Source: Candidatus Bathyarchaeota archaeon
GTDB lineage: Archaea > Thermoproteota > Bathyarchaeia > Bathyarchaeales > Bathycorpusculaceae
Length of the DNA: 64,000 bases
Assembly: GCA_963827165.1 (NCBI GenBank)
Contig: CAWGZR010000010.1
Location: forward strand, 71,394 to 135,393
Direction: 5' to 3'
Shown here: in pieces, positions 5,340 to 9,848 of the stretch
Position numbering within the stretch: position 1 is the stretch's first letter
Layout: every line of letters starts with the position of its first letter
Notes under the pieces: model-generated
Told to the model about the DNA's origin: nothing
The model's database searches: none
Seen by the model: the letters and a program-made list of their open reading frames with translations, nothing else
Translations under genes and position numbers: made by a program

Positions 5340-5834
5340 CTATTTGGCACTCGGCTTTTGGGTTTTCTTAAGCAAGCGTCCGTTTCGATCTATTTCGCCG
5401 CGTCTGATTCGCGTGGTGGATATGGGGCCGCAGTTTTCCGCCGGGACCATGGTTACCGCGACAATCTCCAGCGGTGCAAGCTGTGCTTTGGCGCGTATTT
5501 CATTTATTTTGCTGGCTGCAGGTTCCGTTTCTTTACTTACAACTAAGGCTTGCAAGCCATCGCCGGAAACGGTTAAGCCGTATGGATCACTTAGAGGGAC
5601 AATTTCCGCCCTATTAGCCAAACCTGATGTCTTTAAAAAATCCTGCAGTTCGCTGAATCGTTCAGCATATGAGGCGGTTACGTGAGGTTTACCCATTTTT
5701 GAAACGAACTCGTCTGATGACAAGCCGATCACAACCCTTTCCCCAATTTCGAAAGCTTTGCTCAGCAACGATATGTGACCAATGTGCAGTTCGTCAAATG
5801 TCCCGCCCACCGCAACTTTTCTGAATCTTTTCAT
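5340..5834 (-). CDS. coaD: Archaeal-type phosphopantetheine adenylyltransferase
   Basis: VAVGGTFDELHIGH (HxGH), LVVSKET, ISTTRIRRGEID; coupled to pantoate kinase. Confidence 0.92.
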   Translation of the reverse strand: MKRFRKVAVGGTFDELHIGHISLLSKAFEIGERVVIGLSSDEFVSKMGKPHVTASYAERFSELQDFLKTSGLANRAEIVPLSDPYGLTVSGDGLQALVVSKETEPAASKINEIRAKAQLAPLEIVAVTMVPAENCGPISTTRIRRGEIDRNGRLLKKTQKPSAK

Positions 5835-6763
5835 TTTATCAGCCTAGCGCCTTGGAAATCGATTTTGCTCGTAAACACCTGTTCAGAGGGCAAAACCAGC
5901 TTAAAAGCTTCTGCCACGTCACCCGCATTTTCCTCAAGCACCAACGCATGAACCGCCTCACCCAACATATTTTGTGATGCACCAACTGCACCTGCATCTT
6001 TAGCCAGCTTGACAAGTTGCCGAACATTTTGGGTTGCAAACCCCGCGTTTTGAGAAAACTCCCAGCACCTATCAAGAAAATTACTTAAAGTAGGTTTGGC
6101 AAGAATTGCCTCCAAAGTTTTTCTGCCAAAACGGTTGATGACTTGCTTTCTTTTGGCGTCCCCTAGCACGGTTTTGGGGATGTTTGATTTTAAAAAGCCG
6201 GCTACCGCCATGTAGTCGGGCGTAATAGGGATGCGGTCAAGTTGGCAAATGCCCGGTGCACCCGGCTCCACCACCAACACGCATCCTCCTGTAAAAGTTA
6301 ATGAACTCACCGTGCCCAAACCCGTTCCGCATTCGATCTCAGCAACATGAGCCGTCCTACCGATTTGATTGTATGTCAACGGCAAATCCAGCGCTTCCTT
6401 AAGTGCTAAGCCAGCTGTTAATGCTCCGCCGGCGCTGGTTCCAAAACCCGTGCCTATGGGAACCTCAATTTTATGTTCAACAGAAACGTCGTATTTCTCG
6501 GCAACGCCGCATAAAATTTTCTCAACTGTCTTTCTCGTTGTTTTTGCCTCTTCAGCAAGCTGTGAGTTGATGAAAACTTTGATATTTGGATTCTCCGCCT
6601 CTTCAACCGTAACTTTAGTTAAGACCCCTTTTTGGAGCCCAAATCCCCCGCCCCTCGCACCAACCCTCTCCAAGTCAAGAATTGGCTTGCCGAGGTCGGT
6701 ATTGTGGACTTCAAAGAAGCTAGAAATTGCCGCTGGCGCAAATGCTTCGGCGGTTTTTTTCAC
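5831..6763 (-). CDS. pok: Pantoate kinase (GHMP family)
   Basis: AFAPAAISSFF, GARGGGF, PIGTGFGTSAGG (GHMP motif), AHVAEIECGTGLGTV, SQNMLGEAVHAL. Confidence 0.88.
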   Translation of the reverse strand: MKKTAEAFAPAAISSFFEVHNTDLGKPILDLERVGARGGGFGLQKGVLTKVTVEEAENPNIKVFINSQLAEEAKTTRKTVEKILCGVAEKYDVSVEHKIEVPIGTGFGTSAGGALTAGLALKEALDLPLTYNQIGRTAHVAEIECGTGLGTVSSLTFTGGCVLVVEPGAPGICQLDRIPITPDYMAVAGFLKSNIPKTVLGDAKRKQVINRFGRKTLEAILAKPTLSNFLDRCWEFSQNAGFATQNVRQLVKLAKDAGAVGASQNMLGEAVHALVLEENAGDVAEAFKLVLPSEQVFTSKIDFQGARLIK

Positions 6764-7593
6764 TAAACTTCACTTTCTTTTTCGAGTTCCCTTCTCTTTG
6801 AGAGTGTTGGAAAGGCTCTATTGATTGCGGTGATGATGGGGGGTCCAAGGATCAGTATGAAGGGGATTTCGGTGAAGAAAGTAAAGAAGAACGTCGCCAA
6901 CGCAACTGGTGTCGTGAATGGCGTAGCGGCTGGCGTGAAGAATTGACTGAAAACTGGCACAGTTACACCGATGATGCCAGCGCCAAGTAACATGCCGACG
7001 ATTGAGCCTACTTCGAAGCTTCGCCATTTCGAGTTTCTTAAAAACACCACTGGAACCAGAAATATGATGTAACTTGCAACTGCAACGCTTATGAAGGCTG
7101 TTTTAGCCCAGAAAGCAAGTCCAGTGTATTCGTAACCAATCCAGATGAATACGGCGGTAGCCACCCCGTATGCTGCCACGGGGGTTGCCCAACGAATTTT
7201 CTTTTTTGCGATATACCCGATTAAGAAGAAAGCCACAAAGTTGCTTGTTACTCCCGCCATGAGACTAAGCAGCAGGTTGCCTCCGAAGATAGCATCGCTT
7301 ATGAAGATGCCGACTGCCGCGCCGATTCCTCCAACGAGCGGACCGAAAACGACTGCGAAGACCGCTGGAACAATAACTGGCGGCCAGAATCTAACTCCAC
7401 CATAAGAAATTGGGATTAAACTGAAGAAAATATAGCCGACCGCAACATACAATGCTATGTTTAAAGCTAACCCTGCAACATCAATCGCTTTAAGTTTTAA
7501 CATCTTAACTTTTGCCTTTCCATTGAGATGGTTGTTGAACCTGTTGAGAGTTTCTTTTTGCAGATAAAACTTTCCTATGAATTGTTTAAACAA
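6763..7593 (-). CDS. ECF transporter S-component-like membrane protein; true start probably MLKLK near 7503
   Basis: Multiple TM helices; VRFWPPVIVPAVFAVVFGPLVGGIGAAVGIFISD is typical of S components; stop overlaps the pok GTG by 1 nt. Confidence 0.75.
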   Translation of the reverse strand: MFKQFIGKFYLQKETLNRFNNHLNGKAKVKMLKLKAIDVAGLALNIALYVAVGYIFFSLIPISYGGVRFWPPVIVPAVFAVVFGPLVGGIGAAVGIFISDAIFGGNLLLSLMAGVTSNFVAFFLIGYIAKKKIRWATPVAAYGVATAVFIWIGYEYTGLAFWAKTAFISVAVASYIIFLVPVVFLRNSKWRSFEVGSIVGMLLGAGIIGVTVPVFSQFFTPAATPFTTPVALATFFFTFFTEIPFILILGPPIITAINRAFPTLSKRRELEKESEV

Positions 7594-7687
7594 GTTTAAA
7601 CTTTTTCGGGGCTGTTACTTGGTTGTTTCTTTTTGAGGCAAAATGCTGTCGCCAAGAGAATTGACGTCAAAACAAACCTATTAAGTA

Positions 7688-8257
7688 TTATTGGTGATTT
7701 GTTAACCAAATAGGTTTTTGGTCAACCATTTCTCTCATTGATGGCAAGGGACAGGGCAGATCTAAAGCTGAAAAAACGCTCTCCTCAGTTTCTCCAGCCA
7801 CTGCCACGTCATCTTTTATCAGTCCTACGCTGTACTTTAGTCTGTACCCTTTTGTTATGGCGTAGCCTGCAAGCCACATGTTGTGGTCTGCTGATCCCGT
7901 CCGAATGAGCTCTTGTATGCCGAAAGTTTTCGGTATTGCTCGGTAAAAATCAACTTGAAAAAGGCTATCCTCAAATGGATAGTTAATTTTCGTCAAACTT
8001 GGACCAGAGCAAATGACTTTGGATTTTCTTAGCGTCGGAACAATTTTTGCCCAGTTACTATCCGTTGCTAACACGACAAAGTCGCAGTCGCCAATCAGTG
8101 GCTTTTTTCGTCTAATGCTTCCCACAATTTTCAGTTTAATGCATAAAGGCTTGATTGCTTCTTCAACTTGAAGGGCAACTCTCTCTGCCTTTGTGTATTC
8201 GAGCGAAGTCAAAATCGCTTGATCATCATCTGAACCAAACAATTTAGCTTGCTTCAT
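7688..8257 (-). CDS. polX: Minimal family X DNA polymerase (palm and thumb only)
   Basis: GSIRRKK...GD57CD59, QVD103F, RTGS, TEESVFSALDLP.P.P..RE. No 8-kDa, fingers or PHP domain; 189 aa. Confidence 0.85.
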   Translation of the reverse strand: MKQAKLFGSDDDQAILTSLEYTKAERVALQVEEAIKPLCIKLKIVGSIRRKKPLIGDCDFVVLATDSNWAKIVPTLRKSKVICSGPSLTKINYPFEDSLFQVDFYRAIPKTFGIQELIRTGSADHNMWLAGYAITKGYRLKYSVGLIKDDVAVAGETEESVFSALDLPCPLPSMREMVDQKPIWLTNHQ

Positions 8258-8388
8258 GCTTTGCCCTTACCTTATTGTAAACGGCTGGGTTTTAAAGCAT
8301 ATCTAAGCCGTTTAAAAAGCAAACTGAGAAACAACAATAAGCAATAGTAGTGAGAGGGGGTGAAAGTGAAGCTCGGTTACGTCGAGGG

Positions 8389-8667
8389 TTATACGGGTTC
8401 AAGCGTTACTTCAACGATGCAACCCGGTAGATTTGCTCTTTCATCTTGCCAGACTGATAAGATTTCTTTTGGGATTGATATGCGTCCGGCTTTTTCCATT
8501 TTTGCGTAGTAGAATTGCCAGCCTTTGAATTTGTCTGGGATGCTGAAGCCGACTTTTATGGTTTGGTGTGATTCTAGTTTGAATTCGACAATGATTAGTT
8601 TTGGAATTTGTATTCGCTCATGTTTCTGGAGTGATGCTTTGAAGGCTACTTTTCGTGTTAGCGGCAT
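8389..8667 (-). CDS. 92-aa tandem AbrB/MazE-like swapped-hairpin DNA-binding protein (copy A)
   Basis: Two K..RI.IPK motifs. The ATG at 8667 (MPLTRK) gives an ungapped alignment with 18332..18610 (36/92 identical by manual count). The longer ORF-track start runs through a non-coding repeat array. Confidence 0.75.
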   Translation of the reverse strand: MPLTRKVAFKASLQKHERIQIPKLIIVEFKLESHQTIKVGFSIPDKFKGWQFYYAKMEKAGRISIPKEILSVWQDERANLPGCIVEVTLEPV

Positions 8668-8700
8668 GTTTTTTCGCCCGCTTTTATCTTGGGCGTGTCC

Positions 8701-8860
8701 AATATATAAAGTGTATAATATTGTATTAATGTGTACAGACGCGTATGGACGTGTCTGAAAGTGTATGAAAGTGTATAATATTGTCTTTTTTAGACTCAAC
8801 CTGCAAACAATTCAAGCCCTATACCAAAAAACCATTCTAAAACACAATGGAAAAAAATCT
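8701..8860 (+). repeat. Module copy 1: 10-bp-period array (GTGTATNAAA-like, about 8-9 units) plus conserved A/C-rich motif
   Basis: gtgtataata/ttgtattaat/gtgtacagac/gcgtatggac/gtgtctgaaa/gtgtatgaaa/gtgtataata followed by gactcaacctgcaaacaattcaagccctataccaaaaaaccattctaaaacacaa. Confidence 0.85.
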
Positions 8861-8920
8861 TGTCCAGAAACCATCGGCTTGCCCTTCTGTAGGCTTCTGT
8901 CTTGAAATTTTCAAGCGATT

Positions 8921-9052
8921 ATTCTAGCTATTATAGCTTAATCTAGCGCATTTTAGCTTTTTTTAGCTTAAAATAGCTTATTTTAGCGCACAGTTGCAAT
9001 CTATCCAAGCCCCATTTCAAAAAAGCAGCCCAAAACACAAACAAAAAATTTC
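8921..9052 (+). repeat. Module copy 2: 10-bp-period array (NNNTAGCTTA, about 7 units) plus conserved motif
   Basis: ttatagctta/atctagcgca/ttttagcttt/ttttagctta/aaatagctta/ttttagcgca followed by cagttgcaatctatccaagccccatttcaaaaaagcagcccaaaacacaaacaaaaaatt. Confidence 0.85.
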
Positions 9053-9180
9053 TGAACCAAAAAATCGTGAAGACGCCGCCAAATAGAACTTTGCTCGCTT
9101 TCTTTGATTTCTATGAGCAATTGACGGGTTTTGACTTTTAGGTTATTTTAGATTTTTAGGTTCCTTTCAGGTTTTGCTAA

Positions 9181-9352
9181 GTGGACTTTAGTGAACGGTA
9201 ATGGACGGTAAAGAACGGTAGGGGACGGTAAAAGACGGTAAAGGACGGCAAGGGACGGTAATGGACTTTAAAGGACGGTAAAGGACGCAACCTGCAGAGA
9301 ATTCAAGCCCCAAACCAAAAAAGCAACCCATTTCACAAAAGAAAAAAATTCA
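9181..9352 (+). repeat. Module copy 3: 10-bp-period array (AAGGACGGTA, 11 units) plus conserved motif
   Basis: gtggacttta/gtgaacggta/atggacggta/aagaacggta/ggggacggta/aaagacggta/aaggacggca/agggacggta/atggacttta/aaggacggta/aaggacgcaa then cctgcagagaattcaagccccaaaccaaaaaagcaacccatttcacaaaag. Confidence 0.92.
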
Positions 9353-9510
9353 AAGCTTTCAGTTTTCTACCTTCCAAGTACTCTCATTGTCAACAAAAGA
9401 AAGTCACAAGTGGTCGCCCAGGCCCGCTTGCATTCGTAAAACACTCCCTATTGTCCCGGTCGGCGAGGGTGCTTCAAAAATTGGAATCGACTAAGACAGA
9501 AAGGAGTTCT

Positions 9511-9586
9511 TGGTAGCCCGGGAGAGACTCGAACTCTCGTCAAGGGCTCCAGAGGCCCCTATGCTTGACCGCTACACCACCGGGCT
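9511..9586 (-). tRNA. tRNA-Gln(CTG), CCA encoded
   Basis: Reverse complement AGCCCGGTGGTGTAGCGGTCAAGCATAGGGGCCTCTGGAGCCCTTGACGAGAGTTCGAGTCTCTCCCGGGCTACCA; anticodon arm GGGGC-CTCTGGA-GCCCT; T-loop TTCGAG. Confidence 0.96.
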
Positions 9587-9623
9587 TTAAGCACAACACA
9601 AACGTGGTTCACAATATTTAACT

Positions 9624-9848
9624 TTAATGTTGTGTTGCGTCGCCGTTATTCTTGGCCCTCAAGGCTTCTCGAACGCAGTAGCATTCTTGGCTAACCCTAT
9701 TGTAGCTCTCGCAACGCCATAGCGTGTCAACGATCGCGCTTTTGTTTTGGCCATAACGGGTCGAACAAAAAACCTTCGTGGGGTAATCGTAACTGTTGTG
9801 GCTATCACAGTTGCCGCAGTGTTCGTCGCCATCTGAATTTTGAACCAT
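9624..9848 (-). CDS. Small Cys-rich hypothetical protein downstream of dys
   Basis: 74 aa with CxxC plus four further Cys; ATG 4 nt after the dys stop. Confidence 0.5.
   Translation of the reverse strand: MVQNSDGDEHCGNCDSHNSYDYPTKVFCSTRYGQNKSAIVDTLWRCESYNRVSQECYCVREALRAKNNGDATQH

Follow-up and report, generated by a model that had tools for sequence, protein, structure and literature searches.

The mini-PolX gene and its active-site motifs

The window, which is the whole stretch of 64,000 nucleotides analysed here, belongs to the genome of a peat-soil archaeon of the Bathyarchaeia. At positions 7688..8257, on the minus strand, it contains an open reading frame that starts with ATG and codes for a family X DNA polymerase (PolX) of 189 aa composed of palm and thumb only, hereafter called mini-PolX; this coding region is supported by Pfam, by a fold model and by dN/dS values. 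The gene is flanked by intergenic gaps of 94 bp and 131 bp, which therefore leave no room for lost domains. In the upstream region (8258..8300, minus strand) a TTTAAAA box can be read in the sequence about 36 nt 5' of the ATG, and this box is probably an archaeal TATA-type promoter serving a monocistronic mini-PolX gene. Scans for sigma-70 promoters are not applicable to archaea.

The dNTP-binding motif G46-S-I-R-R50 and the first two catalytic aspartates, D57 and D59, are encoded at 8081..8122, on the minus strand like all the codons described here, and align with GSARR..GDLDF of Thermus PolX in a phmmer comparison. The third catalytic aspartate, D103 (7949..7951), lies within FQVDFYR, which aligns with LQVDL of the Thermus enzyme, and the thumb dNTP/template motif L117-I-R-T-G-S-A-D-H-N126 (7880..7909) corresponds to Thermus YLTGS. 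GSIRR (46-50), D57, D59, D103 and T120-G121-S122 are invariant among 33 aligned family members, as is the thumb pattern RTGSA.HN.WLA. In a broad alignment of 53 diverse members G46, S47, R49, R50, D57 and D59 are also invariant, and R119, T120, G121, S122, H125 and N126 are invariant or near-invariant in both alignments. The preliminary description of this DNA had reported a protein of 189 aa with D57, D59, D103, GSxRR and TGS, and the translation and the 33-member alignment bear this out. It had added that the protein contains nothing else, which holds for the 8-kDa, fingers and PHP domains, all of them absent, but not for the termini, where two further conserved motifs are present. One is the N-terminal linear motif K2-Q-A-K-L-F-G8 (8234..8254; KQxKLFG in the 33-member alignment), which resembles a truncated PIP box, and the other is the C-terminal motif K181-P-I-W-L185 (7703..7717; KPxWL), whose P182 and W184 are invariant.

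Domain searches agree with this reduced architecture. Pfam recognises the PolX thumb (PF14791) at residues 119-176 with 41.2 bits (cut-off 25; E = 1.5e-10) and matches the palm weakly, below threshold (0.0047); neither a PHP nor an HhH domain was found by Pfam in mini-PolX. Against the NCBIfam equivalog model of PolX-PHP, NF006375, mini-PolX covers only positions 156-316 of 571 and scores 32.5 bits against a cut-off of 426, which places it outside the PolX-PHP (PolX1) group. The missing model regions are positions 1-155, corresponding to the 8-kDa and HhH subdomain, and 317-571, corresponding to the PHP exonuclease. The best phmmer match in the PDB is Thermus thermophilus PolX, residues 172-315 (E = 5e-12), followed by the Pol X of African swine fever virus (ASFV; E = 3e-4 to 3e-3).

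The predicted three-dimensional structure is that of a PolX core. The AlphaFold2 model, obtained with the family alignment as input, has a pLDDT of 91.5 and a pTM of 0.85, with disorder confined to residues 1-6; the tail that follows R175-E176 is short, contains a strand and ends at residue 189. A Foldseek search of the PDB with this model gave 335 matches at E<=1e-3, and all 50 of the matches listed are PolX enzymes. The best one is Thermus PolX (3b0x; E = 2.5e-14, rmsd 1.8 A over 164 columns, 30% identity). Pol lambda matches with an E value of about 1e-11, and ASFV Pol X (6.8e-11) has TM scores of 0.70/0.75 (0.75 when normalised to 5hrf_B) and 16% identity. Among predicted viral structures the model resembles PolX-like proteins of giant viruses and phages. 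Mini-PolX is assigned to family X by GSxRR, the DxD and the third aspartate, by the thumb pattern xxTGSxxxN and by its three-dimensional likeness to the PolX palm and thumb.

Chromosomal setting

Mini-PolX lies between a conserved operon and a tRNA gene. The PPAT-PoK-ECF block (5340-7593), a conserved CoA operon, is syntenic in five congeners and its synteny ends at 7593, and the unit formed by DHS, a 74-aa protein and tRNA-Gln (tRNA-Gln at 9511-9586, minus strand) is conserved at other places in five congeners, the sequence beyond the tRNA being different in each. The intervening DNA (7594..9510, 1.9 kb) thus lies where synteny breaks and forms a patch specific to this strain. It contains mini-PolX, an AbrB-like gene (8389-8667, minus strand) and three modules of about 66 nt (8793-8858, 8986-9051 and 9284-9349) that precede arrays with a 10-bp period. 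Only the first of these modules is followed by the AbrB-like gene, and the other two appear orphaned. The AbrB gene, the periodic arrays and tRNA-Gln had been correctly positioned in the preliminary description, and its view of the locus as a small accessory patch agrees with the synteny break beside the tRNA.

The preliminary description had also proposed a survey for co-occurrence of mini-PolX with the AbrB/array module. This survey was carried out and the module was found beside no other mini-PolX locus, although the genome has 22 occurrences of its core motif. A functional link between mini-PolX and the module was rejected, and their adjacency is coincidental.

Mini-PolX is an accessory gene in its host genome. 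Of the 11 other genomes sampled from the genus, 2 have a short PolX, as do a few genomes from elsewhere in the class, and the closest congener (G187; 98% complete, 7 contigs) has no mini-PolX. The neighbours of the gene differ in every genome compared. For instance, in G038 they are a radical-SAM-like gene and two PIN-like toxin-antitoxin pairs (read by eye), in G175 large ATPase genes and in G169 a recombinase fragment, while in G136 they are integrase-like and P-loop protein genes together with deaminase-, NUDIX- and SIR2-like genes (the last three read by eye). Three homologues with 78-82% identity share a common site just downstream of rpP1, a site that in the genome studied here is taken up by different DNA, about 17 kb long. 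A search of 6700-9700 for att-like repeats of tRNA-Gln gave none, and no integrase or other mobile-element hallmark accompanies this copy. In its own genome mini-PolX would stand alone as an accessory gene, transcribed from a promoter of its own and lying in a variable patch beside tRNA-Gln.

A link with Ku and non-homologous end joining was considered and dropped, since Ku occurs both with and without mini-PolX. Ku is uncommon in archaea. It is present in the mini-PolX genome, in 45 of 201 genomes of the class and in 7 of the 11 other sampled congeners; G187, G157 and G193 have Ku and no mini-PolX, and G169 has mini-PolX and no Ku. The Ku homologue of the mini-PolX genome (G000) lies outside the window at C10:350840-351250 (PF02735, E = 3.7e-34), in a frame of 205 aa that covers model positions 2-146 only, and it may be truncated.

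The family of short PolX proteins

In a database clustered at 90% identity, 743 relatives of mini-PolX were found. The best 120 of them are 63-95% identical and, with few exceptions, 183-225 aa long; those among these 120 that are named by source come from Bathyarchaeia. A search of 1.84 billion representatives at 50% identity gave 1961 matches below 1e-3, and among the best 150 of these only 3 are longer than 300 aa, the rest having 61-262 aa and 118 falling at 145-270 aa. Many relatives are already annotated as 'DNA polymerase family X' by automated pipelines. Some representatives carry additional regions. P0213, P0253 and P0256 (218-259 aa) have near the C-terminus a Cys/His cluster (CxC..CxH) similar to a SWIM-type zinc finger, and P0163 and P0267 still possess some of the N-terminal HhH region, so that short PolX proteins come in several accessory-domain variants.

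Pairwise dN/dS values between mini-PolX and four homologues are 0.10-0.21, and the gene is intact and under purifying selection. No second PolX gene was found in its genome (3.13 Mb, 94.5% complete). Among 201 Bathyarchaeia genomes, 63 have a PolX match, mostly to the 560-600-aa form that belongs to other families. A quick maximum-likelihood tree of 142 rows places 12 full-length PolX-PHP cores of Bathyarchaeia from these other families with the canonical full-length PolX, and mini-PolX inside a clade of ~190-aa proteins with 98% support, whose basal subclade (99%) includes the protein of viral contig L048. The preliminary description had called for a phylogeny with viral and cellular PolX. 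The tree separates mini-PolX from PolX-PHP and unites it with a viral-contig protein; by profile scores ASFV Pol X is not its nearest relative.

Short PolX proteins in viruses and integrative elements

The mini-PolX core also occurs in proteins of 169-258 aa from nine IMG/VR contigs. The PolX of contig L048 is 39% identical to mini-PolX, and the GC content of the contig is near that of the window; L048 is a temperate head-tailed viral contig that carries a large terminase, a portal protein, a HerA-like ATPase and a tyrosine integrase. PHROGs contains no family for mini-PolX or for four viral-contig homologues, and a search of INPHARED phages gave two weak matches only. Eighteen plasmid records were matched, and the annotated matches are full-length PolX-PHP, except for one HhH-domain protein; the two unannotated ones that were inspected (H15 and H7) are also full-length PolX-PHP.

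A scan of species-representative genomes with the pattern of the 33-member alignment yielded 80 loci, 77 of them in Bathyarchaeota/Bathyarchaeia MAGs, which derive from peat, bog, palsa and Danish soils. In several of these MAGs mini-PolX is present in 2-6 divergent copies, often in 3-6, and some copies are truncated. Two loci come from contigs binned elsewhere: L061 (DATIXS010000028.1), a 7.8-kb contig placed by binning in the bacterium 'Candidatus Acidoferrum', with a mini-PolX 79% identical, and L117, a 4.7-kb contig binned as Nanoarchaeia, with a mini-PolX 50% identical. Both are probably binning errors and not cases of cross-domain transfer.

Neighbouring genes were clustered over the 80 loci, which were split at 59% identity to mini-PolX. 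Of the 51 loci below this value, 28 are immediately preceded by the small partners c1 (98 aa) and c3 (76 aa), and in 12 an integrase lies no more than 6 kb away. The 29 loci at or above it, which form the window's own subgroup, have these partners in 3 cases and an integrase in 1, and this subgroup is mostly solitary and chromosomal. A co-directional cassette recurs in Bathyarchaeia MAGs (L084, L085, L088, L107, L113, L114 and others), in the order c3 (76 aa), c1 (98 aa), mini-PolX and, further on, a PadR-like wHTH protein, c12 (86 aa), c6 (~130-150 aa) and a tyrosine integrase of 430-480 aa. The partners c1 and c3 have no Pfam match, and the cassettes that run from c3 and c1 through PolX to the integrase look like a family of small integrative elements. 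In three other loci (L087, L102 and L120) mini-PolX lies directly downstream of genes for a 767-aa family-B DNA polymerase, c1 and a Rad51/RadA-like protein. The window genome has an orthologue of this family-B polymerase (62-72% identity) at C4:209885-212170, with no mini-PolX beside it. G000 also has homologues of c6 and of the cassette integrase (50-54% identity) and, about 16 kb from them, a separate integrase fragment of 66 aa (C10:45979-47780 and C10:63674-63871 in all, about 8-25 kb before the start of the window). Together these genes, which are not contiguous with the mini-PolX patch, may represent an element that integrated here and whose integrase is split.

On sequence evidence, mini-PolX is one member of a large short-PolX group common to Bathyarchaeia, integrated elements and head-tailed viruses. 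A lineage of stand-alone PolX proteins of 145-260 aa circulates among Bathyarchaeia chromosomes, integrase-bearing elements and such viruses.

Proposed function and alternative readings

The palm of mini-PolX is predicted to be catalytically competent and its thumb to bind nucleotide and template. The enzyme would most likely add one or a few nucleotides to short gaps or recessed ends in repair. It would do so without proofreading and, as there is no 8-kDa domain, without dRP-lyase activity; its fidelity is probably low. ASFV Pol X and a truncated FvPolX of 19.8 kDa polymerise with a palm and thumb unit only (PMC13252658). Mini-PolX is therefore best described, with reasonable confidence, as a minimal PolX for short-gap filling that comes from the circulating short-PolX lineage, its polymerase activity, its repair role and its low fidelity being predicted from the motifs and the fold.

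The dNTP-binding motifs of Pol beta are 179GSFRR183 and 271YFTGSDIFN279 (PMC13252658). They correspond to GSIRR (46-50) and LIRTGSADHN (117-126) of mini-PolX, in which Y271 and F272 of Pol beta are replaced by I118 and R119, the latter being conserved to 90% or more in the broad family. In the motif alignment Ala130 occupies the position of the helix-N arginine of Pol beta (R283), and K263 and R270 of Thermus PolX align to alanine. The Ile-Arg and alanine substitutions and the lack of a PHP domain would predict low fidelity and perhaps a relaxed selection of the sugar. With Ile-Arg in place of Tyr-Phe and alanine at position 130, the choice of substrate (dNTP or rNTP, templated or not) cannot be assumed.

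Three other readings of the locus were weighed. That mini-PolX could be a decaying remnant of a full-length PolX-PHP gene, having lost the 8-kDa/fingers and PHP domains, is suggested by the existence of 560-600-aa PolX-PHP genes in other Bathyarchaeia families and by the fact that its best match among solved structures is the core of a PolX-PHP enzyme. However, the length of about 190 aa is uniform throughout the family, the dN/dS values of 0.10-0.21 are those given above, the two flanks contain no PolX or PHP fragments, and the protein has conserved motifs of its own at both termini; moreover, identity to the full-length genes of Bathyarchaeia is only 27-38% and these genes group apart in the tree. 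This explanation, which the preliminary description had named as a finding that would overturn its reading, is hardly tenable and we regard it as already refuted: mini-PolX is a complete stand-alone minimal PolX and not a remnant of a longer gene. A second reading concerns the origin of the gene. The same enzyme, with the same role, might be an old resident repair gene, inherited vertically, often lost and moved by rearrangement, and not acquired from a virus or plasmid. Mini-PolX is 68% identical to its G038 homologue while PoK, PPAT and DHS are 74-81% identical, and it is 78% identical to that of contig L059, where neighbouring genes show 62-86%; in addition, the site downstream of rpP1 is common to three contigs and an integrase is found near only one of the 29 loci of the subgroup. 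Since divergence between genomes is of this housekeeping-like kind, an old resident gene is kept as a live rival, although an unlikely one: mini-PolX is absent from the closest congener and from 9 of the 11 sampled genus members, its site differs in each lineage and always lies in variable regions, its sister subclade comes from viruses, and more distant relatives ride on integrative cassettes with several copies per genome. The virus- or plasmid-derived polymerase of the preliminary description finds backing in the ties of the wider clade to viruses and mobile elements, but not in the copy itself, which lacks such hallmarks; a recent mobile origin of the window copy is not supported by its mostly chromosomal subgroup and its housekeeping-like divergence.

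The remaining reading accepts the PolX fold and assigns it another activity, that of a terminal transferase, a ribonucleotide adder or another nucleotidyltransferase that mobile elements would use, for instance to modify ends or to counter defence. In its favour, mini-PolX has Ile-Arg, with the strongly conserved R119, where YFTGS has the Tyr-Phe pair that selects the sugar; it lacks both helix-hairpin-helix DNA-binding modules of canonical PolX; viruses or integrative elements carry many of its relatives as cargo; and a truncated viral PolX is a template-independent transferase (PMC13252658). Against this, N126, the counterpart of Pol beta N279, is invariant together with the whole TGSxxHN helix, which argues for reading of the nascent base pair, and the closest solved relatives (Thermus PolX, Pol lambda and ASFV Pol X) are templated gap-fillers. 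Such an activity seems improbable, and short-gap filling is the preferred reading of mini-PolX.

The terminal motifs and a possible link to PCNA

Q3, K5, L6, F7 and G8 are invariant in the 33 members, and the N-terminal stretch of mini-PolX, MKQAKLFGSDDD, is disordered in the model. In the L048 viral protein the N-terminus reads KKQTSLFPDE. The DP2 of PolD (identified by Pfam) of the same genome has the C-terminus KPKQAKLFDFGS, and DP2 tails of relatives end in KQAKLFDFE or KQASLFDFK. MKQAKLFGS of mini-PolX agrees with the DP2 tail of its own genome, KQAKLFDFGS, over the first six residues of that tail. It differs from archaeal PIP-box tails in being N-terminal and not C-terminal, and in lacking the aromatic pair at positions 7-8 of Qxx[LIM]xx[FY][FY]: Q3 and L6 are present, but these two positions are Ser/Asp or acidic in the 33 members, and the motif is not a canonical PIP box.

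Four C-terminal tails of G000 give the local PIP-box consensus, namely those of DP2 (C5:489781-493194, KQAKLFDFGS), NreA (C9:66893-68227, QKKISDFFKA), a Y-family polymerase (C11:90116-91219, QRQLTNFFQTS) and a DUF72 protein (C5:295416-296288, KQSELGAFFGQ), the latter three being canonical. A genome-wide scan for other proteins with an N-terminal QxxLF returned mostly chance or alternative-start matches, which were set aside.

The disordered KQxKLF segment would recruit mini-PolX, possibly to PCNA. Tentatively, it could be a truncated PIP box, copied from the DP2 tail or convergent with it, that tethers mini-PolX to PCNA in place of the 8-kDa and HhH domains; the protein might then be a clamp-dependent 'plug-in' gap filler that is carried by viruses and integrative elements of Bathyarchaeia and repeatedly domesticated by their hosts. 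If so, the mini-PolX proteins of prokaryotic viruses would be a plausible reservoir of minimal PolX forms, independent of those of giant viruses. The C-terminal motif appears as G[KR]PxW[LM] also in proteins of viral contigs with 63% GC and in several representatives at 50% identity. Its presence in these 63% GC contigs makes it more likely that the motif is intrinsic to the enzyme rather than host-specific.

A 20-kDa PolX core of the size of the ASFV enzyme is common, intact and selected in an abundant class of soil archaea and in its mobilome. As a small and probably soluble enzyme, mini-PolX would be suitable for studies of DNA binding by palm and thumb. It bears on whether a clamp-binding peptide can replace lost domains and on the use of polymerases by viruses and integrative elements. 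Minimal PolX scaffolds are of practical interest for enzymatic DNA synthesis (PMC13252658).

Comparison with known PolX enzymes

No archaeal PolX has been characterised (PMC9226535, PMC13252658). A survey of prokaryotic PolX published in 2022 described a near-uniform PolX-PHP architecture, with a mean length of 573 aa and 10 sequences below 400 aa (PMC9226535). Among known types, the bacterial and archaeal PolX1, represented by Thermus thermophilus (PDB 3AU2/3B0X), is the closest to mini-PolX in sequence and fold, and GSxRR, DxD, the third aspartate and TGSxxH are common to both. However, the Thermus enzyme has an 8-kDa/HhH subdomain and a PHP exonuclease, neither of which is found in mini-PolX, and its YLTGS contrasts with IRTGS.

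PolX2 has been defined by the lack of the 8-kDa and PHP domains, by a conserved active site and by an extra alpha-helical C-terminal domain (PMC12926913). Mini-PolX also lacks the 8-kDa and PHP domains and conserves the active site but, set against PolX2 by its description only, it ends 13 residues past the thumb and has no extra domain.

ASFV Pol X (174 aa; PDB 1JAJ, 5HRB and others) shares with mini-PolX a palm and thumb only, a mass of about 20 kDa, the absence of an exonuclease and a similar fold, and in that enzyme the core alone can fill gaps (PMC13252658). It differs in being distant in sequence and in belonging to a eukaryotic virus and not to an archaeon, and the KQxKLF and KPxWL motifs are defined only within the mini-PolX family. 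The family profile matches Thermus PolX at E = 2e-29, Pol lambda at about 1e-18 and ASFV Pol X at 6.5e-16. The preliminary description was right to take ASFV Pol X as typical of this architecture, but these profile values, together with the low identity and in place of a joint tree, indicate that it is not the closest relative. As the profile is nearer to Thermus PolX, on present evidence ASFV Pol X is an analogue in architecture and size and not the nearest kin. Minimal PolX was already known as a kind of enzyme, and what is added here is a large archaeal and viral lineage together with the suggestion that it may be tethered to the clamp.
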